A stretch of 17,927 nucleotides of DNA from a virus. Taxonomy: Duplodnaviria > Heunggongvirae > Uroviricota > Caudoviricetes. The notes beneath the pieces are model-generated. The model did not search any database, had not been told where the DNA came from, and saw only the letters and a list, made by a program, of their open reading frames with translations. The stretch is from IMG/VR virus record IMGVR_UViG_2585427748_000008, positions 1-17,927 of that record; one strand, written 5' to 3'. The translations under genes and the position numbers were made by a program. Of the stretch, positions 1,377-17,329 are shown one piece after another; the stretch's first letter is position 1; the number at the start of each line of letters is the position of its first letter.

Positions 1377-1396
1377 AATTGATGTTGAGGTAGGGG

Positions 1397-2089: not shown

Positions 2090-2186
2090 GCGTTTATTAC
2101 ATTTCTTTATTGCGCGTTAAGCAAATCAACTTGCGCAAAATATTTGCGTGAAATAATATGCTCATCACGCAATATGTGGAGGTTAT
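2090..2186. promoter_or_regulatory. Immunity-region operator/promoter spacer (OR-like; divergent pRM/pR expected)
   Basis: 97-bp AT-rich spacer between divergent cI and cro starts, with several TTGCG-type half-sites: ATTGCGcgttaaGCAAAT (2109-2126), palindrome TTGCGCAA (2131-2138), TTGCGTG (2144-2150) opposite CACGCAA (2166-2172). A similar ATTGC-N7-GCAAT palindrome lies left of cI at 1326-1342. Confidence 0.5.
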
Positions 2187-2447
2187 ATGCAATCACCATT
2201 ACGGAATGTGCGTAAGGCGCACGGATTTACTTTGCAGCATGTTGCTGCGGGCGTTCAGGTCAATCCAGCGACGCTGAGTCGTATTGAAAGACTGGAACAA
2301 ATTCCATCTATCGATCTTGCAGAACGTCTGGCCAATTTTTTTAAGGGTGAAATCAGCGAAATGCAGATTCTTTATCCGGCACGTTTTCAATCTAGCCAAA
2401 ACCAGAATGGGTTTAAACCACAGGAACAGGAGGTAAGCCGTGGGTAA
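2187..2447 (+). CDS. cro: Cro-like HTH regulator (Cro/YdaS-type)
   Basis: 86-aa ORF starting 5 nt after GGAGG; HTH-like segment GFTLQHVAAGVQVNPATLSRIE; position directly opposite cI. Confidence 0.75.
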   Translation: MQSPLRNVRKAHGFTLQHVAAGVQVNPATLSRIERLEQIPSIDLAERLANFFKGEISEMQILYPARFQSSQNQNGFKPQEQEVSRG

Positions 2448-2997
2448 TCATCACTGGAAAGTGGAAAAACAGCCTGAGTGGTACGTGAAAGCTGTCAGAA
2501 AAACTATCGCGGCGTTGCCGGGGGGTTACGCTGAAGCTGCTGAGTGGCTGGATGTAACAGAGAACGCATTATTCAACCGCCTTCGTGCAGATGGCGATCA
2601 GATTTTCCCGCTGGGATGGGCAATGGTTTTACAGCGTGCGGCTGGCACTCACTACATTGCGGATGCTGTCGCACAGTCTGCTGGTGGGGTGTTCGTATCG
2701 CTTCCTGAAATTGAGGCAGTAGAGAACGCCGATATAAACCAGCGCCTGCTGGAAGTCATTGAACAGATCGGCAGTTATTCCAGACAGATTCGTTCAGCAA
2801 TCGAAGACGGTGTAGTGGAACCGCATGAGAAGACAGCAATTAACGACGAACTGTATCTTTCAATTTCGAAGCTCCAGGAGCATGCAGCACTGGTCTACAA
2901 AATCTTCTGCGCTCCAGAAAAGAGTAACGCCCGCGAGTGTGCAGCTCCGGGCGTCGTGGCGTCGATTGCTTCTGGTTGTGGAGAAACTAACGCATGA
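2440..2997 (+). CDS. CII-like / YdaT-family early regulatory protein
   Basis: GTG start preceded by AGGAGG; 185-aa ORF overlapping the cro stop by 8 nt; sits at the cII position; family call from memory. Confidence 0.6.
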   Translation: MGNHHWKVEKQPEWYVKAVRKTIAALPGGYAEAAEWLDVTENALFNRLRADGDQIFPLGWAMVLQRAAGTHYIADAVAQSAGGVFVSLPEIEAVENADINQRLLEVIEQIGSYSRQIRSAIEDGVVEPHEKTAINDELYLSISKLQEHAALVYKIFCAPEKSNARECAAPGVVASIASGCGETNA

Positions 2998-4139
2998 ATA
3001 GTTTAACGGCAAATAACCGTTTGTCGCAACAGCTGGTGGTCAGCGTCGCTGAACACCTGTTGTTACGGCATGAATGCAGATTACCAAATCACCTGGCTGT
3101 AAGTAACCACAGAGAACTTTACCTGACTGTGGGGGGCGAGTTGTGCAGGAACTTAACCGCTGGTTTCGTGACGGAAGAGGGCTTTATGTCCATGTTATTC
3201 GTTGGGAGCCAGAAACACAGCGCGTTATCTATCTTCGCAAAGACTACCCGCATGAGTGCTTTAGTCCTTTGTGGAAATTCAGGCGTGATTTTGTTGAGTG
3301 TGAAGGACCACCAGCATATTGATTCTGCAATTCCGGGACGTTACACTGTTCAGGCACCTTATAAAGCGGGTGCCGGGATTGGCGTCCTGAAATTCGCACA
3401 TGCGCATAACCGCGCTTCAGCGGTTTTTTTGCGCACGTTTCCTCACATCCAAATTATGGTGGGGCGTGCAGGGGCATCGAAAGATGCGCCGGGGTCATGT
3501 GCGACCGGTTACGCCAACCCTGTACGTCTCACCACCTCTGTGATTGGCGTCCCATGTGGTGAGTTTTCAAAATTCGCACATGAGGATGTCACTATGGCAA
3601 CCACCCCTACCCAAACTCACCCTAAAATTGATGTTATCCATGGGAAGGCTGTTACCTCTTCTTTGGCCGTTGCCGAATATTTCTGCAAGCAGCACAAAAA
3701 CGTTATTCAAAAAATCCAGACGCTTGAGTGCTCTGTTGAATTCACTGAGCTGAATTTTCAGCCCAGTGATTACACCGATTGCACAGGCCGCAAACTCCCT
3801 TGTTACCAAATCACCCGCGACGGTTTTGCGTTTCTTGCCATGGGCTTCACGGGGAAACGTGCTGCCCGGTTCAAAGAGGCATACATCAATGCCTTTAACC
3901 AGATGGAGAAACAGCTTTCAAATCCCTCTGTACTGAGCGACGTTGCACATAACGCCAGCGTTCTCTATTCCTACATTTCATCAATTCATCAGGTCTGGCT
4001 GCAGCAGCTTTATCCCATGTTGGCAAAAGCCGAATCCCCGCTGGCTGTAAGTCTGTATGACCGCATCAACGACGCGGCGCTACTGGCCAGTCTCATAAAT
4101 TTGTCGCTGAACCCTTCAGAGGTAAGGGGGCGCAAATGA
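2994..4139 (+). CDS. Rha-family phage regulatory protein; Rha domain in the C-terminal ~182 aa, with a likely independent start at 3594
   Basis: Frame is open for 381 codons from an ATG overlapping the upstream stop (ATGA). Residues from 3594 (MATTPTQTHPKIDVIHGKAVTSSLAVAEYFCKQHKNVIQKI...) look like a Rha N-terminus and have GAGGA 7 nt upstream. Coding status of 2994-3593 is uncertain (see findings). Confidence 0.6.
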   Translation: MNSLTANNRLSQQLVVSVAEHLLLRHECRLPNHLAVSNHRELYLTVGGELCRNLTAGFVTEEGFMSMLFVGSQKHSALSIFAKTTRMSALVLCGNSGVILLSVKDHQHIDSAIPGRYTVQAPYKAGAGIGVLKFAHAHNRASAVFLRTFPHIQIMVGRAGASKDAPGSCATGYANPVRLTTSVIGVPCGEFSKFAHEDVTMATTPTQTHPKIDVIHGKAVTSSLAVAEYFCKQHKNVIQKIQTLECSVEFTELNFQPSDYTDCTGRKLPCYQITRDGFAFLAMGFTGKRAARFKEAYINAFNQMEKQLSNPSVLSDVAHNASVLYSYISSIHQVWLQQLYPMLAKAESPLAVSLYDRINDAALLASLINLSLNPSEVRGRK

Positions 4140-4360
4140 TCCGGAATATTTTCAAACGGTTTACCAATCATACTTTCCGTTGTCCTCGTCCGGGTCAGTG
4201 GTACACCACGCCTGCAGGGCATGTTCTACGTGTTAGCCTGGTTGACCGTGAATGTCAGAAGGTGATTTGTGAACCGCTGGGCCGTAATTACCGCATCAGT
4301 ATGCCGCTTATAGCCTTTTGCTCCGGAAAAAACATGAAGCATCTCGGAGGTGCAGCATGA
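4136..4360 (+). CDS. Small hypothetical protein (74 aa, Cys-containing), translationally coupled
   Basis: ATG overlaps the Rha stop (ATGA) and its own stop overlaps the next ATG (ATGA at 4357-4360); no recognisable family. Confidence 0.4.
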   Translation: MIRNIFKRFTNHTFRCPRPGQWYTTPAGHVLRVSLVDRECQKVICEPLGRNYRISMPLIAFCSGKNMKHLGGAA

Positions 4361-5175
4361 GTATGGAGCTGATGGTTAAAGCGATGAAAATTCGAGTGGG
4401 TAATCCATTGCGAAAACTGGTTCTGATCAAGCTGGCTGATAATGCCAGCGATCAGGGTGAGTGCTGGCCCAGCTACCAGCATATTGCTGACCAGTGCGAG
4501 ATTAGCAAACGTTCTGTGATGAATCATATTGCGGCCCTTTGTGAGTCCGGGCTGGTAAAAAAAGTCACCCGGAAAGGTGAAAAAGGTAACTCAAGTAATA
4601 TCTATCTCCTTCATCTTGATGGTGCAGGAGATTCACTAGGGGGTAGTGCAAATAATTCACTATCTGGTGCAGCAAATTCACCAGGTAGTGCAGGAGTTGC
4701 ACCAGGGGGTGGTGCAGGAGATTCACCCAGAACCAGTCACTCTTTTGAACCAGTCAAAGAACCAGTCAATGAACCAATAGCTGTTGGTGCATCTGCTGAT
4801 GAGTCTGTGCGAGTTCGTTCAAACCGACCGGAATACTCTCCGGAGTTTGAGCAGGCATGGCTGGCATACCCCAAACGTGCTGGTGGCAATTCAAAATCTG
4901 CAGCCTTCAAAGCCTGGAAAGCCCGTTTGAATGAGGGGGTAAAACCCGAAACCATGCTGGAAGGTGTGAAACGCTACGCGGGCTGGGTATCTGCGATGGG
5001 TAACAGCGGCACACAATTTGTGAAACAGGCTGTCACGTTCTTTGGTCCGGATCGTCATTTCGAAGAATCCTGGGAAGTTCCTGCGGTATCTGCAGCCAGA
5101 CGCGAGGACCCGTACTTCAAAGCCAGTTACGACAACGTGGACTACAGCCAGATCCCGGCAGGATTCAGGGGGTGA
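4357..5175 (+). CDS. Replication initiator, lambda O-like (N-terminal HTH, replisome-organiser-type C-terminus)
   Basis: ATG 6 nt after GGAGG; N-terminal HTH-like segment (LIKLADNASDQGECWPSYQHIADQCEISKRSVMNHIAALCESGLV); the gene contains an in-frame iteron array as in the lambda O gene. Confidence 0.7.
   Translation: MSMELMVKAMKIRVGNPLRKLVLIKLADNASDQGECWPSYQHIADQCEISKRSVMNHIAALCESGLVKKVTRKGEKGNSSNIYLLHLDGAGDSLGGSANNSLSGAANSPGSAGVAPGGGAGDSPRTSHSFEPVKEPVNEPIAVGASADESVRVRSNRPEYSPEFEQAWLAYPKRAGGNSKSAAFKAWKARLNEGVKPETMLEGVKRYAGWVSAMGNSGTQFVKQAVTFFGPDRHFEESWEVPAVSAARREDPYFKASYDNVDYSQIPAGFRG
4621..4778. repeat. Iteron array (putative phage replication origin) inside the O-like gene
   Basis: About five ~22-bp units built on GGTGCAGGAGATTCAC (exact copies at 4621-4636 and 4711-4726, variants between), followed by three GAACCAGTCA repeats at 4730-4770. 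Confidence 0.55.
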
Positions 5176-5177
5176 TC

Positions 5178-5666
5178 ATGAGTCTTTTGAATGAAGTTCA
5201 GAAATTCATTGAAGCCCATCCGGGGTGTACTTCCGGAGACATTGCGGATGCTTTTGCAGGTTACTCACGGCAGCGCGTTCTGCAGTCAGCAAGCAAGTTA
5301 CGTCAGAGTGGGCGTGTGGCTCACCGTTGTGAAGGAGATACACGCAGACATTTCCCGCGCCTGACTGAGAGAGCACAGGAGCCGGAACCACAACCAGTTC
5401 GTGAAACCAGACCTGTGCGCAATTTCTGTGTCGGCACTAACGACCCGCAGGTGATTTTGTGCCTGACTCGCCAGGCGGAAGAACTGGAGTCCAGGGGCTT
5501 ATTCCGTCGAGCTGCAACGGTGTGGATGGAGGCATTCCGTGAAAGCCACTCCCAGCCAGAACGAAACAATTTTCTGGCGCATCGTGAGCGGTGCTTACGG
5601 AAAAGCAGCAAGCGCGCTGCATCGGGTGAAGAGTGGTATCTGTCAGGGAATTACGTGGGGGCTTAA
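5178..5666 (+). CDS. PerC-family (Pch-like) transcriptional regulator with N-terminal extension
   Basis: ATG 3 nt after the O-like stop with G-rich RBS; C-terminal segment RGLFRRAATVWMEAFRE resembles the GLWRRAA..W motif I associate with PerC/Pch regulators (from memory). Confidence 0.5.
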   Translation: MSLLNEVQKFIEAHPGCTSGDIADAFAGYSRQRVLQSASKLRQSGRVAHRCEGDTRRHFPRLTERAQEPEPQPVRETRPVRNFCVGTNDPQVILCLTRQAEELESRGLFRRAATVWMEAFRESHSQPERNNFLAHRERCLRKSSKRAASGEEWYLSGNYVGA

Positions 5667-6319
5667 TGAGTAATAAATATTGCCAGGCGCTGGTGGAGCT
5701 GCGGAACAAACCAGCCCATGAACTGAAGGAAGTGGGCGATCAGTGGCGCACGCCGGACAACATTTTCTGGGGAATTAACACCCTGTTTGGCCCGTTTGTT
5801 CTGGATCTGTTCACTGATGGTGATAACGCCAAATGTGCCGCTTATTACACTGCGGAAGACAACGCGCTGGCGCATGACTGGTCTGAACGTCTTGCGGAGC
5901 TTAAAGGTGCTGCCTTTGGTAATCCCCCGTACAGCCGCGCCAGTCAGCATGAGGGGCAATACATCACCGGCATGCGTTACATCATGAAACATGCCAGTGC
6001 CATGCGTGATAAAGGCGGGCGCTATGTTTTCCTGATCAAAGCTGCCACCAGCGAAGTGTGGTGGCCGGAAGATGCAGATCATATTGCTTTTATTCGCGGG
6101 CGTATTGGTTTTGAACTGCCTGCCTGGTTTATCCCGAAAGACGAAAAGCAGGTGCCAACAGGTGCTTTCTTCGCTGGTGCTATTGCTGTTTTCGACAAGA
6201 CCTGGAAGGGACCGGCAATCAGCTACATAGGGCGCGATGAACTTGAGGCATGTGGTGAGGCGTTTCTGGCGCAGGTTCGCCAGCAGGCGGAAAAACTGGT
6301 CAGGGAGATGGCGGCATGA
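5666..6319 (+). CDS. Phage DNA N6-adenine methyltransferase (Dam-type)
   Basis: ATG overlaps the upstream stop (TAATG); contains the FGNPPY motif typical of N6-adenine methyltransferases; 217 aa. Confidence 0.85.
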   Translation: MSNKYCQALVELRNKPAHELKEVGDQWRTPDNIFWGINTLFGPFVLDLFTDGDNAKCAAYYTAEDNALAHDWSERLAELKGAAFGNPPYSRASQHEGQYITGMRYIMKHASAMRDKGGRYVFLIKAATSEVWWPEDADHIAFIRGRIGFELPAWFIPKDEKQVPTGAFFAGAIAVFDKTWKGPAISYIGRDELEACGEAFLAQVRQQAEKLVREMAA

Positions 6320-6642
6320 CGACGTTAACTCAATGCCAGCAGCAGGTGCTGGATATGCTGATTTCTTATCAGAAAGAACGTGGCTTCCCGCCAACCAATC
6401 AGGAGGTGGCAACCATGCTGGGATACCGTTCGGTGAATGCAGCGGTGGAGCATCTTCGCGCACTGGAGAAAAAAGGCGTCATCACGATAAAGCGTGGCGT
6501 GGCCCGGGGGATAACGCTTCATACTGCGATGAAGGACGACGACAGCGAGGCGGTCGGGATTATCCGCGCACTGCTTGCCGGTGAGGAAAACGCAAGGCTG
6601 CGTGCAACCCACTGGTTACATGAGAGGGGCCTGAAAGTATGA
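6316..6642 (+). CDS. LexA N-terminal-domain-like DNA-binding protein (no peptidase domain)
   Basis: ATGA-coupled start; 108-aa ORF with winged-helix-like QQVLDMLISYQKERGFPPTNQEVATMLGYRSVNAAVEHLRALEKKGVI. Confidence 0.6.
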   Translation: MTTLTQCQQQVLDMLISYQKERGFPPTNQEVATMLGYRSVNAAVEHLRALEKKGVITIKRGVARGITLHTAMKDDDSEAVGIIRALLAGEENARLRATHWLHERGLKV

Positions 6643-7034
6643 AGCTAATACTGCCTTTTCCGCCCAGCGTGAACACGTACTGGCGACACCCCAACAAAGG
6701 GGCGTTTGCTGGTAAGAGCCTGATAAGCGCGGCGGGGCGAAAATTCCAGAGCGCGGCGTGTGCAGCAATAGTTGAGCAGTTACGTCGTCTGCCGAAACCA
6801 ACGTCGGCACCTGCTTCAGTGGAGATCGTGTTGTTTCCTCCGGATAACCGGATCCGCGATCTGGACAACTATAACAAGGCGCTGTTTGACGCCCTGACCC
6901 ACGCGGGTGTGTGGGAAGACGACAGTCAGGTGAAAAGAATGCTGGTGGAGTGGGGACCGGTTATCCCGGAGGGGAAGGTCGAGATCACTATCAGTAAGTA
7001 CGAAAAAGCGAGTTGCAAATTAGCAACTCGGTAA
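6639..7034 (+). CDS. rusA: Holliday-junction resolvase RusA
   Basis: ATGA-coupled start; 131-aa sequence MKLILPFPPSVNTYWRH...DLDNYNKALFDALTHAGVWEDDSQV matches the RusA family pattern (from memory). Confidence 0.9.
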   Translation: MKLILPFPPSVNTYWRHPNKGAFAGKSLISAAGRKFQSAACAAIVEQLRRLPKPTSAPASVEIVLFPPDNRIRDLDNYNKALFDALTHAGVWEDDSQVKRMLVEWGPVIPEGKVEITISKYEKASCKLATR

Positions 7035-7196
7035 CGGAATTGAGCAACACCCTAAATTTGGGTATTACCTCGTTAAAGATACTGTATTTATGAACAGTGT
7101 ATCCTTGATAACTATTAAAAATCGCAGTAAGTTCATCCTGCATCAACGAAAAGGGAGTGCAGTCCCGCTCGTGGATAAAAATTTGTGGAGAAACCA

Positions 7197-8012
7197 ATGA
7201 ATCAGTTGCTTGTAATTGATGGCGTTTCTGTGCGCCAGTACTTCGAATCTAACTACTGTCTTAACGACCTTCAGAAAGCTGCTCTTCTTGCCGCTGGTGA
7301 GAATCGCTCCTCCCGTTCGCTGGAAGTTCACGAGTTTATGCGTCGTCCTGAAACGAAGGCTCTTGTGGAATTATTGGAAGAAGAAACTACGGGAGATTCC
7401 CGTAGTATTCCTGTCATCACCATTCAGGGGCGCAATGGTGGGACGTATGTCTGTAAAGAGCTGGTCTATGCATATGCAATGTGGATCAGCCCGGCATTCA
7501 GCTTAAAAGTGATACGTACTTTTGATGCGCTTCATAATTCATCACCAGAAGAAACCACATCCGACAAAATTAAATCCGGGGTCATTCTGCTTGAATCAGC
7601 AGCAAAGACTCTAAATCTGTCAAACTCCTCGAAACTTGGTGCATACCAGAAATTATCAAAGGTAGCTGGTCTTCCTGAACTTATGCCGATCTATGCCATT
7701 GATGCACCTGCTGATGCGCCAGATGGTTCAAGCCGCCCTACGCTGTCGCTGAGTGCACTGCTGAAGCAGTATGGTATCCGCCTGACGGCTAATCAGGCAT
7801 ATCACCAGATGGCGAAGCTGGGGATCGTTGAACAACGCGAACGATACAGCCGTACCGCGATTAACAACATCAAAAAATTCTGGTCGCTGACCGCGAAAGG
7901 CTGCATGTTCGGCAAGAACATCACCAGTCCTGCAAATCCGCGCGAGACGCAGCCGCATTTCTTCGAATCCCGATTTCCTGAGCTGTTAAAGCTGCTCGAT
8001 ACCGTTCATTGA
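7197..8012 (+). CDS. KilA-N domain protein (antirepressor-like)
   Basis: ATG with GGAG 6 nt upstream (track start 7185 is an upstream GTG); N-terminal KilA-N-like region (TYVCKELVYAYAMWISPAFSLKVIRTFD). Confidence 0.8.
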   Translation: MNQLLVIDGVSVRQYFESNYCLNDLQKAALLAAGENRSSRSLEVHEFMRRPETKALVELLEEETTGDSRSIPVITIQGRNGGTYVCKELVYAYAMWISPAFSLKVIRTFDALHNSSPEETTSDKIKSGVILLESAAKTLNLSNSSKLGAYQKLSKVAGLPELMPIYAIDAPADAPDGSSRPTLSLSALLKQYGIRLTANQAYHQMAKLGIVEQRERYSRTAINNIKKFWSLTAKGCMFGKNITSPANPRETQPHFFESRFPELLKLLDTVH

Positions 8013-8013
8013 G

Positions 8014-9009
8014 GTGACTGTGAGAGCACTACTGACCCCTGAAATTGCCCCGCGTATGGGGATCGTATTGTTCAGGCCAGGTTCAGAGCTGATGCCCCTG
8101 TTTATGCAGGGGCGTGTCCTGCTGGAGCCTGAGCCGGAGCGTTATTCATCTTTCGCCAGTGGTGCCGTTCCGGCGGCATCACAACCGCTGGCGGATGATC
8201 CTGCCGTTCGGGCCGTGTTCCGCCATGAGGCAGTGATCCGTCGTGCTGGTGGCGTGGAATGTCTTGAAAGCTGGTTACTTCGTGAAAAAGGCTGCCAGTG
8301 GCCTCATTCCGGATGGCACAGCGAGAACATGACCACAATGCGACACGCTCCGGGTGCAATCCGTCTGTGCTGGCACTGCGATAACCAGCTGCGCGATCAG
8401 TTCACGGAACGGCTGGAATCAATGGCAACGGATAACTGTGCCCGCTGGGTGTTGTCTGTTGTGCGTCGGGATCTCGGTTTTGATGACAGTCACGTTGTGA
8501 CAATGCCGGAACTGTGCTGGTGGCTGATTCGTAATGACCTGGCGGATGCCTTACCGGAAAGTGCAGCCCGTAAGGCACTGAGATTACCGAAGCCTGTTGT
8601 GCCGTCTGTCACCCGGGAAAGTGACCTTGTGCCTTCGGTTCCTGCCACCAGCATCATCCAGGATAAAGCGAAAAAGGTGCTGGCGCTGAAAGTGGATCCG
8701 GAGTCGCCGGAGTCTTTTATGTTACGCCCCAAACGTCGCCGCTGGGTTAATGAAAAGTACACGCGCTGGGTTAAGACGCAGCCGTGTGCATGTTGTGGAA
8801 AGCCTGCTGATGATCCCCACCATCTGATAGGCCACGGTCAGGGGGGAATGGGTACAAAAGCGCATGATCTCTTTGTGTTGCCTTTGTGCAGAAAGCATCA
8901 CGACGAGCTGCATGCGGATACCGTGGCATTTGAAGAGAAGTATGGCTCCCAGCTGGAGTTGATATTTCGTTTTATCGATCGTGCGCTGGCAATTGGTGTG
9001 CTGGCCTGA
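8014..9009 (+). CDS. DUF968-like prophage protein (Cys/His-rich HNH-like C-terminus)
   Basis: 331-aa ORF; C-terminal CACCGKPADDPHHLIGHGQGGMGTKAHDLFVLPLCRKHHDELH; start codon uncertain (GTG 8014, GTG 8020 or ATG 8056). Confidence 0.7.
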   Translation: MTVRALLTPEIAPRMGIVLFRPGSELMPLFMQGRVLLEPEPERYSSFASGAVPAASQPLADDPAVRAVFRHEAVIRRAGGVECLESWLLREKGCQWPHSGWHSENMTTMRHAPGAIRLCWHCDNQLRDQFTERLESMATDNCARWVLSVVRRDLGFDDSHVVTMPELCWWLIRNDLADALPESAARKALRLPKPVVPSVTRESDLVPSVPATSIIQDKAKKVLALKVDPESPESFMLRPKRRRWVNEKYTRWVKTQPCACCGKPADDPHHLIGHGQGGMGTKAHDLFVLPLCRKHHDELHADTVAFEEKYGSQLELIFRFIDRALAIGVLA

Positions 9010-9026
9010 TTTTGTGGAGAAAGTTG

Positions 9027-9383
9027 ATGCGTGATATGTATGAAGTAATGGATCGTTGGGGAGCTTGGGCTGCTTCAGACAATAGCGGAGTGGACTGGCA
9101 GCCGATAGCGGCTGGTTTCAAGGGACTTTTACCTCATGGCAAAAAGTCACGGATTCAGTGTGATGATGACGAAGGCATCATGATAGACAGTTGTGTGGCT
9201 CGGTTGAGAAGGTATAAACCAGAGGAATATGAGCTCATCATCGCCCACTTTGTTATCGGTATCTCATTACGTACTATTGCGAAGAAGAGAAAATGCTCTG
9301 ATGGCACAATTAGGAAGGAACTGCAAACTGCAATGGGGTTTGTTGACGGCTGTTTAGCAATGTTAGCTTATAGTATGGCATAA
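9027..9383 (+). CDS. Q: Late-gene antiterminator Q (phage 82/21-type family)
   Basis: ATG with GGAGA 6 nt upstream (track start 9012 is an upstream TTG); MRDMYEVMDRWGAWAA...WQPIAAGFKGLLP...CSDG pattern typical of this Q family (from memory); last gene of the nin-like region. Confidence 0.75.
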   Translation: MRDMYEVMDRWGAWAASDNSGVDWQPIAAGFKGLLPHGKKSRIQCDDDEGIMIDSCVARLRRYKPEEYELIIAHFVIGISLRTIAKKRKCSDGTIRKELQTAMGFVDGCLAMLAYSMA

Positions 9384-10577
9384 AAAATAAAATAGATTTA
9401 CTGCCGATTTTTCAAAAAAGACTGGGAACTGTTTATATCCAACGTAAATAAGGCCTCCATAAAACATGGCTGATGCGAGATATTTAACAGTTCTCATCCT
9501 TTTTTTAGCTTTATCAATCAAACCTGTAATGCTACTCTTAATACTATCTGCATTATCTTTGATTTCTTTATTTTCTTCAAACTTTAAATACTTATCGAAA
9601 GCGGACTCCACTCGAGAACGTAAGTTGTCGAATGTTTCATTGAATATCTCAATAGAAATGTAATTGACTTTTTTTATCATCCAAAGTCCTGCGATAATCA
9701 ATATTGCTTCGGTTGTTTCATTAGCCTTCACTAAGCCACCAGCAGCTATTAATGCACCGGGAATAGTCAATGCTTTTGTCTGATTAGATGATATGAATTC
9801 GTTAATTTTACTCGTGAACTCAAGATTTTTCTCATCGAGTTCGTTAAGAATTTTATTTACAGAAAACCTCTTTGTGTAAATCTCATATAGTTCATCATAT
9901 TTTTTCCTGACGAGTTCAGTAGAGTTAAGCAAGTCAAAGAAATTGAACGTACCATTTGCTTTAAATACTTCGTTTATGGCTGAGCGTATAACGAGCTTGC
10001 GCTCGCTTTTGTGTAAATCATTGATTTTTATTGTGTCGAGAAGCTCCTTTATAATTTCATATTTAAGAGACGAGTTCGATAAGCGATTAATCTCGCTATA
10101 TTGTAAAAAATGCGTGAGTTCGACTGTATAACTTTTGTCTTCATTGGTGAAAAATAAGACAGAGCAGTCACTGTTATGATGATCAGCAATTAATGAAAGG
10201 ATATCTTTCCACATAAAGAAAATATGGATTTTTTCGATGCTTTCATTCTTAGAAGTAGGGAGTATTAACGGCGTTCCGATGATATAATTTTTCGGAAGAG
10301 CGTTTTGGGTGTTTACTCTAGACCAAAAAGACTCAACATTCTCATAAATTATAGCGTCATCCCAAGATGAAGCTTGGCGATCTAGCCAAATTTCATTATT
10401 TTCGATGCAGGTTGTTGCCTTTTTATAACCTATAGATTGTAACAGTCTAATTATTTCAGAACTATTTACAATAACAATGCTTTCTTCAAGACTTATGACA
10501 GTGTAGTAGCCCTCAACTCTGCTTGAGGCTCCGTTAATAATCTGCGCTAATCTTGATAAGTCATCAGCAATTGTCAT
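9363..10577 (-). CDS. Hypothetical protein with hydrophobic C-terminal segments (predicted membrane protein); second gene of an AT-rich cassette
   Basis: 404-aa ORF; start 2 nt after the stop of the upstream cassette gene; hydrophobic stretches ALTIPGALIAAGGLV...AILIIAGLWMI and YLASAMFYGGLIYVGY; sampled GC ~28-42% versus ~58% in flanks; 3' end overlaps the Q 3' end by 21 nt. Confidence 0.7.
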   Translation of the reverse strand: MTIADDLSRLAQIINGASSRVEGYYTVISLEESIVIVNSSEIIRLLQSIGYKKATTCIENNEIWLDRQASSWDDAIIYENVESFWSRVNTQNALPKNYIIGTPLILPTSKNESIEKIHIFFMWKDILSLIADHHNSDCSVLFFTNEDKSYTVELTHFLQYSEINRLSNSSLKYEIIKELLDTIKINDLHKSERKLVIRSAINEVFKANGTFNFFDLLNSTELVRKKYDELYEIYTKRFSVNKILNELDEKNLEFTSKINEFISSNQTKALTIPGALIAAGGLVKANETTEAILIIAGLWMIKKVNYISIEIFNETFDNLRSRVESAFDKYLKFEENKEIKDNADSIKSSITGLIDKAKKRMRTVKYLASAMFYGGLIYVGYKQFPVFFEKSAVNLFYFLCHTIS

Positions 10578-10579
10578 TA

Positions 10580-11755
10580 TTAGCTGTCTCTATATCTTTT
10601 GAGTTCATCATAATTTGCCTGACTCAATTTTATCACAATTTCGCATTTGTTGTCAGTGAGAATTACAGGCTTATTTGACTTTTCGTCTCCAATAGCTCCA
10701 CGCATTATTTTCAACTTAAAATTATTGTCGTTATCTGCCACTTCAATTGTAAGCGCGCTTTCAGCTGCTTTAGGAGTTGGTTCAAATTGAGGGTCAATCT
10801 GGAAACCATTAAGATTAACAAAATCGACAAACGTTCCCTTACATTTGTGTGAATCAGTCAGGCATGAGTCAATTATTTTTGAAATATCCTCTATCTTAAC
10901 GGACTTATTTCCGTGTTTATCTTTTGATTTTTTTTCCAGTAAGGATTTAACTTCATTGTCAATAGTATCACGCAGTACACGACCGAGTGAGTTTTTACTA
11001 GCAAAAATATCTATAGCACTGAATAATTGCTGAATGCTTCTTTTATTGTCCGAATCATGTCGGCAACCTAATGAGTCTTTGAAAAAATCGCTTTTAGATT
11101 TACCTTGCAAGAAATGTACATATGAGTCACCCTTGTTTTCTGGATAACTGGCTTCGAATAAAGTTAAATCGAACATCGCAGCCTGCCGTAAGGCATCGGT
11201 ATTAATTGGATTTAATCTTGTTGGGGTCAACTTATCCGAATCAAAGTCATAGGCGCTTTGTTTATCAACCATTACGATTAGAAGTTTCCCCAAATCCTCT
11301 GGTTCGGTAGACTTATAGTGGATGAAAACAACGCTCCCCCCCTGAAGTTGGGCAACTCTCGATTCGTTATTAGCATTATGTTTAAGCTTCTCTATTATAG
11401 CTCTAGATAAATCAATGAATTCATTATTTTTATTAATGTATTTTTTTAGGATCGTAGGAATGGATGAAGGGTTGTGATCTGAGTCTAGGAAGTTATGAAA
11501 TTTGTTTTTTCGGCTAAATTTTTTCTCAATTCTGGTTATGAATTCAGATGTGACTTCATTTTTTAGATCCCAAACTTCACCTAATCGATAATCAAATGCT
11601 CTTGAATCATTTTTTTCAAGATTTGCTGTTACAGCACCAATAGGAAAGTACGATTGTTTGCCCAGCACTACAACATGAGGCGTGGCACCGCATTTATCGC
11701 AAGCTACAGTTGGGTCGTCAAGAACATTGCCACATTCTAAACAAGTTATATCCAT
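10580..11755 (-). CDS. Hypothetical protein with N-terminal CxxC-X10-CxxC zinc ribbon and NdpA/YejK-like (NA37) region; first gene of the cassette
   Basis: 391-aa ORF; Cys at residues 5, 8, 19 and 22 (CLECGNVLDDPTVACDKCG); GGSVVFIHYKS and YVHFLQGKSKSDFFKDSLG resemble motifs I recall from nucleoid-associated protein NdpA (unverified); a TATAAT hexamer lies about 12 nt upstream of the ATG on the minus strand. Confidence 0.7.
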   Translation of the reverse strand: MDITCLECGNVLDDPTVACDKCGATPHVVVLGKQSYFPIGAVTANLEKNDSRAFDYRLGEVWDLKNEVTSEFITRIEKKFSRKNKFHNFLDSDHNPSSIPTILKKYINKNNEFIDLSRAIIEKLKHNANNESRVAQLQGGSVVFIHYKSTEPEDLGKLLIVMVDKQSAYDFDSDKLTPTRLNPINTDALRQAAMFDLTLFEASYPENKGDSYVHFLQGKSKSDFFKDSLGCRHDSDNKRSIQQLFSAIDIFASKNSLGRVLRDTIDNEVKSLLEKKSKDKHGNKSVKIEDISKIIDSCLTDSHKCKGTFVDFVNLNGFQIDPQFEPTPKAAESALTIEVADNDNNFKLKIMRGAIGDEKSNKPVILTDNKCEIVIKLSQANYDELKRYRDS

Positions 11756-11875
11756 TATATATCCCGAATTATAAGAATGAATTTTTATGTGGCTGAAAAT
11801 TCTATCAAAACACTAACGCGTACGCAAAAAGTATTGTATTGTGTTAAGAGTGGTTACTTCGCCACACAACTTAAC

Positions 11876-11897
11876 CCCGCCACTGAGCGGGTTTTTT
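11876..11897 (+). terminator. Intrinsic terminator-like hairpin (CCCGC-CACTGA-GCGGG followed by TTTTTT); candidate tR'-type site
   Basis: 5-bp GC stem 11876-11880 / 11887-11891 followed by a 6-T run; lies in the non-coding stretch between the cassette promoter side and the FaeA-like gene. Confidence 0.4.
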
Positions 11898-12021
11898 GTA
11901 CCTGTAAACTTGGTGCAGTACAGTAAACACGCTGGTGGTCGTGAATACTGGCTTTTTATCTTGCTGGCTTTTTAGACAAGAGTTATTGGTATGTCACGTT
12001 AACCGGAAAGGGTAAAAAGAC

Positions 12022-12219
12022 ATGCTGAAACAGCAGGATATGACAGAAACCGCCAGAGTTGTGTTTGATGAATTAAGCGTTACCGAACCGGCGACAGTCG
12101 GGGAGATTGCGCAGAATACTTACCTTTCACGCGAACGCTGCCAGTTAATACTGACCCAGCTTGTTATGGCGGGTCTGGCAGACTATCAGTGCGGTTGTTA
12201 CAGACGCCTTCAGTCCTGA
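12022..12219 (+). CDS. Small winged-helix regulator, FaeA/PapI-like
   Basis: 65-aa ORF; TVGEIAQNTYLSRERCQLILTQLVMAGLADYQ resembles PapI/FaeA-type wH proteins (from memory); its stop is embedded in a strong terminator hairpin. Confidence 0.5.
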   Translation: MLKQQDMTETARVVFDELSVTEPATVGEIAQNTYLSRERCQLILTQLVMAGLADYQCGCYRRLQS

Positions 12220-12232
12220 AGGCTTTTTATTT
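12206..12232 (+). terminator. Rho-independent terminator after the FaeA-like gene
   Basis: 7-bp stem GCCTTCA/TGAAGGC with loop GTCC (12206-12223) followed by TTTTTATTT. Confidence 0.55.
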
Positions 12233-12353
12233 GTGGTGAATGGGCGGCTGGTGGGGGGGCGACACCTGTCAGTCCTTTGCTTATGTGTTGATGATAATTT
12301 ACCTTTTGGGGCTATAATTGAGCTAACCAATTGCTAATGAAAGTAAAATTATA

Positions 12354-13067
12354 ATGGCTGTTGTCTGTTCAGTTATCATGGTTTGCTCCCCAATTAATAT
12401 TTTTCTTGAAAAGGATACGTTGTCACTTAAGCCAGGCTCAGTTGTTCTGGCCACCAAATGCATCAGGGAGCTTTTCCTTATGCATTATGGCAAAGTTAAA
12501 ATTGTCGATATAAGCGAATCCGTCGTAAGTCAATATCTGGAAAGTCAGCATAAGCTGACGAGGACTCGTCTGACTGACATTCCGCTTTACCTGTTGCTGG
12601 AACCCAACAATCCTGCGTTGGCTGCGGCTTTAATTACCAGCCAGGGATTTTCCGGAGAGGCCACGGATATGTTTCTTATGATGGCCTGCCTGTCTCTGTT
12701 TGAAACAGATGAACGGATGTCATTGTTTTTAAGTGGATGTTTATCCAGCATAAGTGCCAAAGTCAGGGCGATAATTCAGACAGATATATCAGCAAGCTGG
12801 ACGCTTGGTGCGATTGCTCTACAGTTGCATATGAGTGAGAGTTTGTTAAAGACAAAACTGAAAAATGAAGGGGGCATGTTCAGTCGCTTGTTGCTGGAAG
12901 AGCGGATGCGTGTTGCTGTAAATATGTTATGTTCCCGGCATGGATATGGACAGGCTATAGCAGAAAAATGCGGTTATTCAAGCAGGTCCTACTTTATTTC
13001 TGTATTTCACCGCTATTATGGCTTCCCGCCAGACAGATATGTATCCAGGCAAGGGCTTGATTATTGA
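12354..13067 (+). CDS. AraC-family transcriptional regulator (AppY/GadX-like prophage regulator)
   Basis: 237-aa ORF with C-terminal AraC-type HTH (WTLGAIALQLHMSESLLKTKLK...AIAEKCGYSSRSYFISVFHRYYGFPP); a TATAAT hexamer sits at 12314-12319 upstream. Confidence 0.8.
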   Translation: MAVVCSVIMVCSPINIFLEKDTLSLKPGSVVLATKCIRELFLMHYGKVKIVDISESVVSQYLESQHKLTRTRLTDIPLYLLLEPNNPALAAALITSQGFSGEATDMFLMMACLSLFETDERMSLFLSGCLSSISAKVRAIIQTDISASWTLGAIALQLHMSESLLKTKLKNEGGMFSRLLLEERMRVAVNMLCSRHGYGQAIAEKCGYSSRSYFISVFHRYYGFPPDRYVSRQGLDY

Positions 13068-13095
13068 TTTTCATCTGATTATTATTTTTTGGCTC

Positions 13096-13171
13096 GGCCC
13101 TTTAGCTCAGTGGTGAGAGCGAGCGACTCATAATCGCCAGGTCGCTGGTTCAAATCCAGCAAGGGCCACCA
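13096..13171 (+). tRNA. ileZ: tRNA with CAT anticodon (Ile2-lysidine type or Met), 3' CCA encoded
   Basis: Manual fold: 7-bp acceptor GGCCCTT/AAGGGCC, D-arm TAGCTCAGTGGTGAGAGC, anticodon loop CTCATAA, T-arm CTGGTTCAAATCCAG, discriminator A then CCA. Symbol given by analogy to the ileZ-argN-argO cluster of Stx phages. Confidence 0.85.
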
Positions 13172-13178
13172 TCACATA

Positions 13179-13252
13179 CCGCCATTAGCTCATCAGGAAA
13201 GAGCGCCAGCCTTCGAAGCTGGTTGCGCGGAGTTCGGGTCCCCGAAGGCGGT
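13179..13252 (+). tRNA. argN: tRNA-Arg-like (anticodon TCG), aberrant: one acceptor-stem and one T-stem mismatch, no encoded CCA
   Basis: Manual fold: acceptor CCGCCAT/AAGGCGG (6 of 7 pairs), D-stem GCTC/GAGC, anticodon stem CCAGC/GCTGG with loop CTTCGAA, T-arm CGGAG-TTCGGGT-CCCCG (4 of 5 pairs). Confidence 0.6.
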
Positions 13253-13268
13253 TCATTATCTGTATCCT

Positions 13269-13345
13269 GCGTTGTTAGCTCAGCCGGACAGAGCAATTGC
13301 CTTCTAAGCAATCGGTCACTGGTTCGAATACAGTAGAACGCGCCA
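13269..13345 (+). tRNA. argO: tRNA-Arg (anticodon TCT), with one acceptor-stem and one T-stem mismatch; CCA encoded
   Basis: Manual fold: acceptor GCGTTGT/AGAACGC (6 of 7), D-arm TAGCTCAGCCGGACAGAGC, anticodon stem ATTGC/GCAAT with loop CTTCTAA, T-arm ACTGG-TTCGAAT-ACAGT (4 of 5), discriminator G then CCA. Confidence 0.75.
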
Positions 13346-13360
13346 CACTTATTTTCCCTG

Positions 13361-13384
13361 GCTCGCTTTTGCGGGCTTTTTTTT
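13361..13384 (+). terminator. Intrinsic terminator after the tRNA cluster
   Basis: GCTCGC-TTTT-GCGGGC hairpin (6 bp including one G-U) followed by an 8-T run. Confidence 0.6.
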
Positions 13385-13833
13385 AAATGTCTCACAATTC
13401 AGGCGGTTGACTGTTGTCTGGTTTGCGGGGAGTTTGTTAAAAGAAACTGGCATGGTGAATCCCCCTGTGCGGAGGGGCAATCAGCGAGTAGGTATATGGG
13501 ATAATCGCGGATTCAGGTGCTGGTACTGAATTCACCGGGAGGCACCCGGCACCATGCAATGGCACATAGTGCCACTCTCCAGCCCCTCTCCGGAGGGGCT
13601 TTCTTATGGACAAAAAAAGCCCGCGCAGGGAGACGCGGGCGGCAAGGAATAAACAACAAAACGTGAAGTAATATTTCAGCTGGCGAATAATATCCGACAG
13701 TAATCACTCTGCGCAATAGCGCGGCCTTTTTCGTATTGCGGGCTGTTGTCTATCTTCTGCCATTGTCCTGTAACTTCCGGACTTCAGCCCGCTCCTCATT
13801 TTACTCACAATATTATCCAGGCCGGGAGGATTC

Positions 13834-15795
13834 ATGGCATTTAAACACTATGACGTGGTCAGGGCGGCGTCGCCGTCAGACCTTGCGGAGCGACTGACAC
13901 AAAAACTGAAGGAGGGGTGGCAGCCATTTGGCAGTCCGGTGGCCATCACGCCTTATACCCTGATGCAGGCCATTGCGGCGGAAGGTGATGTCACCACACC
14001 TGTGGTGGTGAAGCCGTCGGATGGAGAAGGCGCAGTTATCAGCACCACCAGCAACCCGGAGTATTACTTTGTTGTTGCCCTGGCCGGGCAGTCAAACGGT
14101 ATGGCGTATGGTGAAGGGCTTCCGCTGCCGGAGACATATGACCGTCCGGACCCGCGTATTAAACAGCTGGCGCGTCGCAGCACTGTCACGCCGGGTGGTG
14201 CGTCCTGTAACTACAATGACATTATTCCTGCGGACCACTGCCTGCATGATGTTCAGGATTTGAGTAAGTTTTCACACCCGAAAGCTAGCGCAGCTCAGTA
14301 TGGATGCGTGGGGCAGGGATTACATATCGCGAAGAAATTGTTGCCGTTTATTCCGGCGAATGCCGGTATTCTTCTGGTTCCGTGCTGCCGTGGTGGTTCT
14401 GCATTTTTGGCGGGCGATGAAGGTACCTTCAGCGAATCCACCGGCGCAAGCGAGACCTCGGCACGCTGGGGTGTAGATAAGCCACTGTACAAGGACCTGC
14501 TTACCCGTACTCAGGCCGCACTGAAGGCTAACCCTAAAAATATTCTGCTTGCAGTGGTCTGGATGCAGGGCGAGTTTGATTTGAAACAGGGTGCATACGC
14601 CACTCAGCCGGGGCTGTTTGATTCCATGGTGGAAAAATATCGTTCTGACCTGTCGGAATTCGGAGGTCAGTGTCTCGGGGGCTCTCCGTCATCGGTTCCC
14701 TGGATTTGTGGCGACACGACCTACTACTGGAAGCAGACTTATTCTTCGCAATACGATGCGGTGTATGGTGCATACAAGACGAAATCCGCAAAAAAAATCT
14801 TCTTTGTGCCGTTTATGACGGATGAAAACGGGCGAAATGTGGGTACCAACGAGCCGTCAGAAGATCCGGATGTTGCGGATATTGGGTATTACGGAGCCGG
14901 TGGTCGAACGGACGCCAAAACCTGGACGACGGCCGACCGTAAAACGCATTTTGGATCATGGGCACGTCGTGGGATTATTTCCGACCGTCTGGCAACGGCG
15001 ATTCTTGTGCATGCCGGGAGAACCGCTGAATTCATTACCGGAAAACAGCCTGATACGGTGAAGCCCACCGGACCTTCCGGTGAAGGTACGGAGAGAGAGC
15101 CGGAAGCCCCGGTCAGTAACCGAACCCTGATGAGTCTGCTGGCGTCCGGCGAAGACCTGGCATCACAGGGCTGGCGCTATTATCACAAACCGGCGAGCGG
15201 AGACAATGTTAACAAAAACATTGCTGAAGCGGTGGTCAGTGATGCGGGGGCTACGGGAGGTAAGGCCCTGCAACTGAATAAACCGGAAAACCACATCTGG
15301 TTTCTGGAGCATGATGCAGCCGGACAGGGAGTGGAGTTACTGAAGAAGGGGGGACGTGTGAGCGTACGGTTTAAGTTGCCGGGTTCACTGGTGCCGAATC
15401 GGTTTGCCCTGGGCATTTACTGGCAGTTGTCGTCCCTGCCGGAGGGAGTGACGCTGGCAGAGGAAGGCAACGACATGCTGATGTCCTTCTTCCTGCAGAC
15501 GGATGCGACGAACCTGAACGCGATGTACCACAAGAAGCCGAATGCGAAGCTGGATACGTTCGGGGTCTTTGATAACGGATGGCACACACTGGCTTTTGAG
15601 TTTGCCGGAAACAACAGCATTCAGGTGACGCCGGTACTGGATGAGAAACGGGGGACGCCGTTCACACTGGTGAAATCTCCGGCATCAGGGGCGGCGGACA
15701 AACTGCAACTGACAGGCATATCAAAGGCGGCGACATATACGCTGCTGATTGACAGTGTGAAGGTGGAAGTGAACAACGCGGATGCCGCGGCATGA
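13834..15795 (+). CDS. nanS-p: Prophage sialate O-acetylesterase NanS-p (N-terminal DUF1737-like region, SASA/SGNH esterase core, C-terminal extension)
   Basis: 653-aa ORF with GGGAGGA RBS; the AGQSNG motif (FVVALAGQSNGMAYGEG) is typical of the sialate O-acetylesterase catalytic site; sits where nanS-p lies downstream of stx in Stx phages. Confidence 0.85.
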   Translation: MAFKHYDVVRAASPSDLAERLTQKLKEGWQPFGSPVAITPYTLMQAIAAEGDVTTPVVVKPSDGEGAVISTTSNPEYYFVVALAGQSNGMAYGEGLPLPETYDRPDPRIKQLARRSTVTPGGASCNYNDIIPADHCLHDVQDLSKFSHPKASAAQYGCVGQGLHIAKKLLPFIPANAGILLVPCCRGGSAFLAGDEGTFSESTGASETSARWGVDKPLYKDLLTRTQAALKANPKNILLAVVWMQGEFDLKQGAYATQPGLFDSMVEKYRSDLSEFGGQCLGGSPSSVPWICGDTTYYWKQTYSSQYDAVYGAYKTKSAKKIFFVPFMTDENGRNVGTNEPSEDPDVADIGYYGAGGRTDAKTWTTADRKTHFGSWARRGIISDRLATAILVHAGRTAEFITGKQPDTVKPTGPSGEGTEREPEAPVSNRTLMSLLASGEDLASQGWRYYHKPASGDNVNKNIAEAVVSDAGATGGKALQLNKPENHIWFLEHDAAGQGVELLKKGGRVSVRFKLPGSLVPNRFALGIYWQLSSLPEGVTLAEEGNDMLMSFFLQTDATNLNAMYHKKPNAKLDTFGVFDNGWHTLAFEFAGNNSIQVTPVLDEKRGTPFTLVKSPASGAADKLQLTGISKAATYTLLIDSVKVEVNNADAAA

Positions 15796-15930
15796 TAAAA
15801 AAAGCCGCCAGCGGCAGGAACGGAAGCTGGCGGAGGGAATCCCAATGGAGAATGTAAAGAAAAGATGCTTTCGTATATCGGTTTTTTAAATGAAAACAGT
15901 TCTCATTGTCAACCATAACGGTAAGAAACT

Positions 15931-16125
15931 ATGACATTTATTCATCAGGTGATGCTGTACTTCTGTACGGCGGTCTGTGTGCTGTATCTTCTTTCGGGTG
16001 GGTACAGGGCAGTGCGCGATTTCTGGCGCAGGCAGATTGATAAAAGGGCCGCAGAGAAAATCAGCGCCAGTCAGTCAGCCGGAGCAAAAACAGAAGCCCC
16101 ACTCATTCCGGAACAACCTTCTTAA
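15931..16125 (+). CDS. Small hypothetical protein with one hydrophobic segment (64 aa)
   Basis: ORF only; hydrophobic VMLYFCTAVCVLYLLSGGY; weak RBS; no family recognised. Confidence 0.3.
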   Translation: MTFIHQVMLYFCTAVCVLYLLSGGYRAVRDFWRRQIDKRAAEKISASQSAGAKTEAPLIPEQPS

Positions 16126-16285
16126 TAACCCATTTCAACGAGAAAATCCTATGTCAGAAATAAAATCGCTGGTCACTGCTGAGGCAGTGAAGGAAGTTCT
16201 GCGCTCTGAAGAAGTCCGGAGCGCACTGAAACGTAACCGGCTCATTTAAACCGTCTGGTCTGTTTCCTCCGGCTCTACAAAAATA

Positions 16286-16963
16286 ATGTCCATCATTTTT
16301 AATGGACACTATCGTATGAAACACCGGACCTGGATCACTGAAGCTTTACGTCTTCACTTTGAAGAACATTTACCCCGGGTTGTGGCCGGGCGTCGCCTGG
16401 GTGTACCAAAATCAACAGTTTGTAGTATGTTCGTGCGCTTTCGGAGAGCTGGCCTTTCGTGGCCTTTGCCCGCAGGCATGTCGGAGCAGGAACTTGATGC
16501 CTGCCTTTACGGACAATTTTCCACGGTACCAGTCGTACGTCCTGAAAGCACCGTTATATCCGAAGCCCCCGTGGTAAAAAAACGTCCCCGGCGGCCCAAC
16601 TTCCCTTATGAGTTTAAAATCGCCTTAGTGGAGCAGTCACTGCAGCCCGGAGCCTGTGTGGCGCAGATCGCCCGGGAAAACGGAATCAACGATAACCTGC
16701 TCTTCAACTGGCGCCATCAATACCGGAAAGGTGGCCTGCTGCCTTCCGGAAAAAATATGCCGGCACTGCTTCCCGTGACGTTAACGCCGGAGCCGGATAA
16801 TAAAATCCCGGCCCCCGCACAGGAACCAGAGCAGATAAATACACCGTCCGACAGTCTGTGTTGTGAGCTGGTTCTGCCGGCCGGAACTCTCAGGCTTAAA
16901 GGTAAACTGACGCCGGCGTTATTACAGACACTTATCCGCGAAATAAAAGGGAGCAGCCACTGA
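16286..16963 (+). CDS. tnpA: IS66-family accessory protein TnpA (orf1)
   Basis: 225-aa ORF (alternative ATG at 16316) with HTH-like segment (RRLGVPKSTVCSMFVRFRRAGL); immediately precedes and overlaps the tnpB start. Confidence 0.8.
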   Translation: MSIIFNGHYRMKHRTWITEALRLHFEEHLPRVVAGRRLGVPKSTVCSMFVRFRRAGLSWPLPAGMSEQELDACLYGQFSTVPVVRPESTVISEAPVVKKRPRRPNFPYEFKIALVEQSLQPGACVAQIARENGINDNLLFNWRHQYRKGGLLPSGKNMPALLPVTLTPEPDNKIPAPAQEPEQINTPSDSLCCELVLPAGTLRLKGKLTPALLQTLIREIKGSSH

Positions 16964-17310
16964 TGATATCTCTCCCTGCAGGTTCGCGTATCTGGCTGGT
17001 TGCAGGTATCACCGATATGCGAAATGGCTTTAACGGCCTGGCATCAAAAGTTCAGAACGTCCTGAAGGATGACCCGTTCTCCGGACACCTGTTCATCTTC
17101 CGCGGACGCCGGGGTGACCAGATAAAAGTGTTGTGGGCTGACAGTGACGGACTGTGCCTCTTCACCAAACGCCTGGAGCGGGGCCGCTTCGTCTGGCCAG
17201 TCACCCGTGACGGCAAGGTGCACCTTACTCCGGCTCAGTTATCCATGCTTCTTGAAGGTATCAACTGGAAGCACCCGAAACGAACGGAACGCGCTGGAAT
17301 CCGCATATAA
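16963..17310 (+). CDS. tnpB: IS66-family TnpB (orf2)
   Basis: 115-aa ORF MISLPAGSRIWLVAGITDMRNGFNGLA...; size and sequence pattern typical of IS66 Orf2 (from memory); start overlaps the tnpA stop. Confidence 0.9.
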   Translation: MISLPAGSRIWLVAGITDMRNGFNGLASKVQNVLKDDPFSGHLFIFRGRRGDQIKVLWADSDGLCLFTKRLERGRFVWPVTRDGKVHLTPAQLSMLLEGINWKHPKRTERAGIRI

Positions 17311-17329
17311 CCCGTTGTAAAGTGAGGAT

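Follow-up and report, generated by a model that had tools for sequence, protein, structure and literature searches.

We examined a stretch of 17,927 nucleotides from a virus of the Caudoviricetes (IMG/VR record IMGVR_UViG_2585427748_000008, positions 1 to 17,927), hereafter the window. We conclude, from sequence identity, that a two-gene cassette on its minus strand is DS-1, an anti-phage system that has already been named and experimentally validated for identical proteins. The first gene encodes DS-1A, a relative of the nucleoid-associated protein YejK that carries an additional zinc ribbon; the second encodes DS-1B, a putative membrane effector. With a probability of about 0.62, we read the cassette as a moron of a lambdoid prophage that would be transcribed from its own promoter and would act by release-activated abortive infection, in the manner of the recently described Type II PANGU systems.

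Identity and limits of the cassette

Both proteins pass NCBIfam equivalog models. DS-1A scores 451.4 bits against NF053868 DS1_1_antiphage (cut-off 330), covering model positions 3-369 of 369, and DS-1B scores 375.2 bits against NF053869 DS1_2_antiphage (cut-off 315), covering positions 1-337 of 337. DS-1A is also identical at 391/391 residues to the sequence given in Table S8 of PMC13092281, and DS-1B, a protein of 404 amino acids, to all 399 residues printed there. RefSeq assigns the accessions WP_000355468.1 (DS-1A) and WP_000150292.1 (DS-1B) to DNA that is 100% identical to the cassette, and recent RefSeq annotation of this identical DNA names the products 'nucleoid-associated anti-phage protein' and 'anti-phage protein'. 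The published system and the cassette in the window thus have identical proteins, equal gene order and an equal 2-nt spacing. The validated copy was taken from another E. coli strain (NZ_RRVY01000002.1; PMC13092281), and the prophage around it may differ from that of the window.

DS-1 stands for DefensePredictor-discovered system 1, with the working id D390, and was reported by DeWeirdt, Mahoney and Laub (Science 2026; PMC13092281), who remarked that the YejK domain was new to defence. A low-copy plasmid carrying the system under its native promoter was tested in E. coli MG1655 by challenge, with replication, with 24 phages (PMC13092281). The values of -log efficiency of plating (EOP) were 7.6 for Bas1, 2.7 for Bas26, 1.7 for Bas3, 1.7 for T3, 1.0 for T5 and 0.9 for T7, and SECphi27 formed smaller plaques at unchanged EOP (PMC13092281 Table S7). 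Bas01-13 are T1-like Drexlerviridae and Bas26 belongs to the T5-like Markadamsvirinae (PMC8594841).

A preliminary description of the window, made by a reader who saw only the letters and the open reading frames (ORFs), had proposed that the cassette was a defence module. This was borne out, the proteins being 100% identical to a pair that cuts phage plating. The same description took the pairing to be uncharacterised and without a name, a view overtaken by the name DS-1 and the curated equivalog models. The finding is already known, both through publication and through those models, and a mechanistic framework for the class has been published too. Its value here is that a sequence-only reader picked out a real defence system from composition, position and domain logic; what remains of interest in DS-1 is the effector's mode of action, the contribution of the zinc ribbon and the relation to Type II PANGU. 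Neither DS-1A nor DS-1B matched any family, at E-values up to 1, among the 5027 models of PADLOC-DB v2.0.0 (2023). This is not evidence against defence, because DS-1 had yet to be described when the database was released.

The DS-1A gene occupies 10580..11755 on the minus strand (391 codons) and is followed on the same strand by the DS-1B gene at 9363..10577 (404 codons). Reading the junction directly (...AGC TAA TA ATG...) confirmed the preliminary claim of two linked genes separated by 2 nt, with DS-1A first. At the base composition of the cassette, stops are expected in 7.5% of codons, and 391 codons without a stop would arise by chance with a probability of about 5e-14.

The cassette differs in composition from its surroundings. 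Its guanine-plus-cytosine (GC) content is 34.9%, as against 50.0% in the left flank and 51.6% in the right. In 400-nt windows GC stays at 33-39% within the cassette and reaches 58.5% in the DUF968 gene; at third codon positions (GC3) the two cassette genes have values of 0.31 and 0.33, compared with 0.44-0.60 in adjacent genes. By blastn against related prophages that have other cargo or none, homology ends at or before 9346 and restarts at 11807 or 11825. Together with the GC profile, these breakpoints define a variable cargo segment of about 2.46 kb, 9347..11806, between conserved prophage flanks, in close agreement with the limits 9363-11830 given in the preliminary description. The low GC, the shift in GC3 and the variable presence of the segment all uphold the earlier suggestion that this AT-rich DNA was acquired separately.

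Two features lie at the edges of this segment. At its right-hand end a consensus scan found a sigma-70 promoter for the operon (TTGATA, 16 nt, AAAAAT; 11781..11808, minus strand; 9/12 matches) that spans the homology breakpoint. It is only a candidate, because the 13 promoter-like sites in the region do not exceed the mean of 10.6 in shuffled sequence. At the left-hand end the DS-1B gene converges on the Q antiterminator gene (plus strand, 9012/9027..9383), and their 3' ends overlap by 21 nt (9363..9383) both in the ORF coordinates and in RefSeq annotation of identical DNA. The final Q codons fall within cassette-specific sequence.

The two proteins and their pairing

DS-1A begins with four cysteines, C5, C8, C19 and C22, whose CxxC-x10-CxxC spacing can be read directly (11690..11743, minus strand) and agrees with the zinc ribbon named in the preliminary description. 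Pfam zinc-ribbon models all scored under threshold on DS-1A (E 0.07-0.28); HHpred on residues 3-26 gave NinF/Zn_Beta_Ribbon at 86% (PMC13092281). No full-length DS-1A homologue of at least 42% identity lacks any of the four cysteines, and the motif is present in 48 of the 88 homologues with an uncut N terminus. A Pseudomonas clade of homologues is without it and has an acidic extension in its place.

Most of the remaining protein (residues 64-376; 10628..11566, minus strand) is an NA37, or YejK/NdpA-like, domain. It matches Pfam PF04245 with an E-value of 1.2e-23 and 84.5 bits (gathering cut-off 24.6), as the resemblance noted earlier would predict. The sole significant PDB match, for the sequence and for the AlphaFold2 (AF2) model alike, is E. 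coli YejK, 9be2 (phmmer E 1.2e-9; Foldseek E 6.3e-14, probability 1.00); the predicted local distance difference test (pLDDT) value of the model is 85.0. DS-1A also matches PHROG 3767, which is filed under 'DNA, RNA and nucleotide metabolism'. Its score on the YejK equivalog NF001557 is 81.4 bits, below the cut-off of 341. Judged by these scores, DS-1A belongs to the NA37 family as a divergent member, not as an orthologue of YejK. E. coli YejK (NdpA) is a housekeeping nucleoid-associated protein that has the NA37 fold and family in common with DS-1A; the two are only about 18% identical, however, and DS-1A differs in having the extra zinc ribbon and in being encoded in a prophage operon with a putative membrane protein.

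DS-1B has no Pfam family and, by sequence, nothing in the PDB at E-values up to 10, and it matches PHROG 5023 with an E-value of 2e-158. Its AF2 model (pLDDT 84.8) comprises an alpha/beta domain, residues 1-218, and then long helices at 220-269, 271-282, 288-331, 337-383 and 385-403. The N-terminal domain (9924..10577, minus strand) is variable in sequence and acidic, with a net charge of -8 and, for residues 1-265, an isoelectric point of 5.2; the net charge is negative in each of the 34 homologues examined. By analogy with Type II PANGU, it is a candidate for the domain that binds DS-1A.

The part of DS-1B that follows is the most conserved in the family. Fourteen of the 20 invariant columns in our family alignment (A1) fall within residues 225-285 (KKYDELYEIYTKRFSVNKILNELDEK..FTSKINE.ISS.QTKALTIPGALIAAGGLVK; 9723..9905, minus strand), a block that extends into the first hydrophobic segment. 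We judged the transmembrane signal by Kyte-Doolittle hydropathy, which peaks at residues 269-283, 290-305 and 364-383, positions conserved across the family. The first two peaks correspond in the model to a helical hairpin (residues 269-304; 9666..9773, minus strand) whose two hydrophobic segments are joined by a polar loop, KANETTE; the third (residues 364-383; 9429..9488, minus strand) is the end of helix 337-383. The preliminary description of a soluble N-terminal region of about 270 residues ahead of hydrophobic segments typical of membrane effectors holds for the division of the protein, the hydrophobic part starting at residue 269. It holds less well for the transmembrane signal, which is marginal in the E. 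coli protein and clearer in homologues, the 19-residue maximum being above 1.6 in 30 of 34.

Of 5426 complete E. coli genomes, 106 carry the cassette at no less than 99% identity. It also occurs in two plasmid-like records of E. coli, and a Klebsiella plasmid has an 85% identical copy within a prophage region. At megablast level a phage-isolate collection gave no match to the cassette, which is known from prophages and not from sequenced virions. The wider DS-1B family is large: among 1.84 billion proteins, its profile matched the representatives of 775 clusters drawn at 50% identity, with E-values of 1e-3 or below.

In the loci examined the pairing is strict. In 15 of 15, the gene directly upstream of the DS-1B homologue, in the same orientation, codes for a DS-1A homologue; these loci come from Enterobacterales, Pseudomonas and marine gammaproteobacteria and include one cut by a contig end (L014) and one that looks degraded (L023). 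The same order is found in three of three distant family members. Homologous pairs are carried by loci on varied elements (L008/L009, 7001-9422; L027, 2988-5161; L007, 7001-9376; L024, 2938-5251 in locus coordinates). An NA37 gene with a DS-1B-like partner occurs at the end of a Pf-like filamentous prophage of P. aeruginosa, in a Mu-like prophage immediately before the holin, in a Serratia marcescens island with serine recombinases next to a BstA_C gene, and beside an Abi_2 gene on a metagenomic contig.

Two of the loci deserve separate mention. In the degraded-looking one, from Photorhabdus viridis (L023, 2651-3948), no more than 125 residues of the A protein can be aligned, and the match to the B protein is split between two frames. 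A 2.6-kb contig labelled 'MAG: Lactobacillales bacterium' (L013) has a DS-1 pair whose proteins share 48% and 38% identity with those of E. coli. Its label is probably a binning error rather than a sign of cross-phylum occurrence, because all other close relatives are from Gammaproteobacteria.

Proposed release-activated abortive infection and its alternatives

A preprint of April 2026 describes PANGU systems, which combine the gene for a YejK-like nucleoid-associated protein (PagA) with that for an effector, PagB (bioRxiv 10.64898/2026.04.06.716658). In Type II PANGU the pair is Pag2A and Pag2B; Pag2B has at its N terminus an acidic 'DNA-mimic' (DMK) domain and at its C terminus a transmembrane domain. 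For the E. coli system, PANGU-Ecu, both genes are required, neither is toxic alone, and infected cultures show abortive-infection-like behaviour. The isolated DMK domain binds Pag2A with a dissociation constant of 19 nM, and a fusion of Pag2A to green fluorescent protein departs from the nucleoid upon T4 infection. T4 escapes through mutations in denA, which encodes the nuclease that starts host-DNA breakdown. In Type I PANGU, the pair becomes toxic even in the absence of phage when PagA is deficient in DNA binding, and chromatin immunoprecipitation sequencing (ChIP-seq) of Pag1A showed DNA binding without sequence specificity (all bioRxiv 10.64898/2026.04.06.716658).

On the Type II pair of nucleoid-associated protein (NAP) and membrane protein we base a proposed mechanism for DS-1. 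With its own promoter, and opposite to the phage genes, DS-1 would be expressed in the lysogen. In the uninfected cell, DS-1A, with its YejK-like domain and extra zinc ribbon, would sit on chromosomal DNA. A lytic phage that degrades or dismantles the host nucleoid would release it, and free DS-1A may then bind the acidic N-terminal domain of DS-1B. This would activate the C-terminal hydrophobic helices, leading to damage of the inner membrane and to abortive infection of a cell that no longer supports phage growth. The preliminary description had suggested a nucleic-acid-binding sensor coupled to a membrane effector, a logic supported, by analogy, by its match to the preprint's experiments on Type II PANGU.

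A Type II PANGU mode appears the most likely one for DS-1 because architecture, gene order, family size and mobile context are alike. Both are two-gene operons found in E. coli in which the YejK-like gene comes first; in both, the partner is acidic in its N-terminal domain and has a C-terminal part that is transmembrane in Pag2B and hydrophobic, putatively membrane-spanning, in DS-1B; and both belong to large families in mobile-element or defence-gene neighbourhoods. Type I PANGU, consisting of Pag1A and the toxSAS/GRel protein Pag1B, also has a YejK-like sensor gene upstream of an effector gene, but its effector is a soluble pppGpp synthetase, whereas DS-1B has no Pfam match and no significant structural match. 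A genome-integrity cue is plausible as well, because all the phages restricted by DS-1 belong to host-DNA-degrading groups. T7 degrades host DNA through gp3 and gp6. T1 and T5 are cited as host-DNA degraders in the preprint (bioRxiv 10.64898/2026.04.06.716658).

Several observations weigh against this model. The evidence for DS-1 in PMC13092281 consists of plating assays. A structural-neighbour search with the DS-1B model returned no significant match that would indicate pore-forming or other activity. The E. coli protein has a Kyte-Doolittle 19-residue maximum of 1.56, which is just under the usual transmembrane threshold, and the acidity of its N-terminal domain is moderate (13% D+E). The likeness to PANGU-Ecu is one of described architecture. 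The phage ranges differ too: PANGU-Ecu blocks T4 and not T1 or T5, whereas DS-1 restricts T1-, T5- and T7-like phages with no recorded effect on T4. Finally, the zinc ribbon of DS-1A has no assigned role in the PANGU model. Expression also differed between the two studies, DS-1 being driven by its native promoter on a low-copy plasmid and PANGU-Ecu by induction with isopropyl β-D-thiogalactopyranoside (IPTG), and the preprint is silent on both DS-1 and a zinc ribbon (bioRxiv 10.64898/2026.04.06.716658).

The difference in range bears on an alternative in which DS-1A senses a phage component, either incoming or replicating DNA or a protein, through its NA37 domain or zinc ribbon and then activates DS-1B. 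PANGU-Ecu, a sensor of genome degradation, acts on T4 only, which sets it apart from DS-1. The zinc ribbon is conserved and was gained in the enterobacterial clade, being absent from that of Pseudomonas, which suggests an added recognition function; and the gap between Bas1 (7.6 logs) and its relative Bas3 (1.7 logs) looks as if a specific determinant were recognised. Nonetheless, there is no known candidate ligand, the NA37 proteins that have been studied bind DNA sequence-nonspecifically, as the Pag1A ChIP-seq indicates, and the pairing and architecture of DS-1 match those of systems shown to use relocalisation. We consider direct sensing rather unlikely. Less likely still is a non-lethal superinfection exclusion, in which DS-1B would block phage DNA entry or an early membrane step and DS-1A would be a regulator or chaperone. 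Such a role would suit a prophage-encoded, lysogen-expressed, membrane-associated protein, like classic Sie/Imm-type proteins, as well as the complete loss of Bas1 plaques and the reliance of the restricted siphoviruses and podoviruses on inner-membrane steps for DNA entry. But a nucleoid-associated partner of 391 amino acids in every locus is unexpected for an injection blocker, and the restricted phages differ in receptors and entry routes. Moreover, many of the effects are smaller plaques with a moderate drop in EOP, as is typical of abortive or partial systems, and the analogous Type II PANGU behaves as abortive infection.

It is very improbable that the pair serves the prophage itself, for example as a nucleoid protein that silences or organises DNA together with a lysis-related membrane protein, and that its anti-phage effect is a side effect of cloning. 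The pair does lie beside Q and lysis genes in several prophages, and the PHROG category of DS-1A would fit such a role. However, it is variably present in otherwise near-identical prophages, where other defence-type cargo replaces it; its base composition is foreign and its orientation opposite; filamentous prophages, Mu-like prophages and a non-phage island carry it as well; and defence was measured, with replication, from the native promoter on a low-copy plasmid. Two further readings were rejected. A toxin-antitoxin pair is not indicated, as neither protein resembles a known toxin or antitoxin in Pfam, PADLOC or NCBIfam and the analogous PANGU genes are non-toxic singly. A holin or lysis role of DS-1B is at odds with its opposite orientation in lambdoid prophages, its variable presence and its constant companion, the NA37 gene.

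Release-activated abortive infection of the Type II PANGU kind is the reading we favour. Among NAP-based defences, the DS-1 clade may form a branch with a function of its own, a tentative idea that we regard as possible rather than probable. If so, its zinc ribbon and its range, which takes in T1-, T5- and T7-like phages and not T4, would point to a cue other than denA-dependent genome degradation. The invariant 60-residue block of DS-1B (RFSVNK...TSKINE...QTKALTIPGALIA), together with the hydrophobic hairpin, would then represent an undescribed kind of membrane-damaging effector.

The slot beside Q and its prophage surroundings

The cassette adjoins Q in every copy that we inspected, while the right flank varies, with a holin directly after the cassette in some prophages. 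The Q allele of the window also lies beside DS-1 in an O103:H2 prophage, and the overlap with Q recurs in the Klebsiella copy. In the window, the cassette is followed on the right by a probable late promoter/terminator region; an AraC-type gene, a group of three tRNAs and a nanS-p-like esterase gene come next. The preliminary description placed the cassette between Q and the tRNA/late region and took this for a position where cargo such as stx is commonly carried. The cassette in fact lies ahead of the tRNAs, between Q and the probable late promoter/terminator region, and the stx slot is downstream of the tRNAs; the two slots are neighbours and not one.

A survey of the same slot, flanked by DUF968 and Q, in related E. 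coli prophages showed that the cassette is variably present and not fixed. Some of these prophages have no cargo there at all. Others carry a WYL-domain gene (strain S88; L003, 1761-2378), a set comprising a C5-methyltransferase, a HEPN nuclease and a DUF262 protein (L004, 2947-5808), or two small genes on the minus strand (L005, 2903-3325 and 3588-4457). The DUF262 protein matches the PADLOC models NsnA and PD-T4-2_A. A 289-aa protein of L005 matches the PADLOC candidate PDC-S42 and also an NCBIfam model, 'LAPAL motif putative phage structural protein'; the 140-aa gene of that locus has no family match. Because some of the other cargo of the slot matches defence models, the site downstream of Q looks like an exchange site for defence cargo, and in this group of lambdoid prophages it is a useful place to seek further defence systems.

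Just beyond the cassette, in sequence common to related prophages, are three terminator-like hairpins with T-runs on the plus strand (11876-11891, 11931-11952 and 12206-12223). They probably belong to the late promoter/tR' region; if so, DS-1 has been inserted between Q and the site at which Q acts. They are followed by a near-consensus promoter-like site (ATGATA, 16 nt, TATAAT; 12291-12318) and a gene for an AraC-family regulator of 237 amino acids (12354-13067, plus strand; 44% GC). This gene is probably further prophage cargo, resembling the prophage-encoded AraC-like regulators of pathogenic E. coli.

The three tRNA genes (13096-13345, plus strand) have a CAT anticodon, Arg-TCG and Arg-TCT; ARAGORN assigns the first to Met, and RefSeq to either Ile or Met, depending on the genome. 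This is the usual tRNA set just upstream of stx in Stx-converting phages, where stx occupies the interval between the tRNAs and the nanS-p-like gene. In the window, stx is not present in that interval, the annotated gene content of which is a remnant on the opposite strand. The interval also contains a full-length Rfam match to the small RNA (sRNA) STnc100 (13421-13611, plus strand; 140 bits).

Elsewhere in the window, two further Rfam matches exceed their gathering scores: the Hfq-binding sRNA isrK (3354-3430, plus strand; 62 bits) and C4 antisense RNA (3452-3539, plus strand; 75 bits). Both lie within an ORF (2994..4139) that bears the annotation of a Rha/Ash-family regulatory protein and whose 5' part may be over-called. 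The isrK/C4 region looks like a P1-type c4/antirepressor immunity module.

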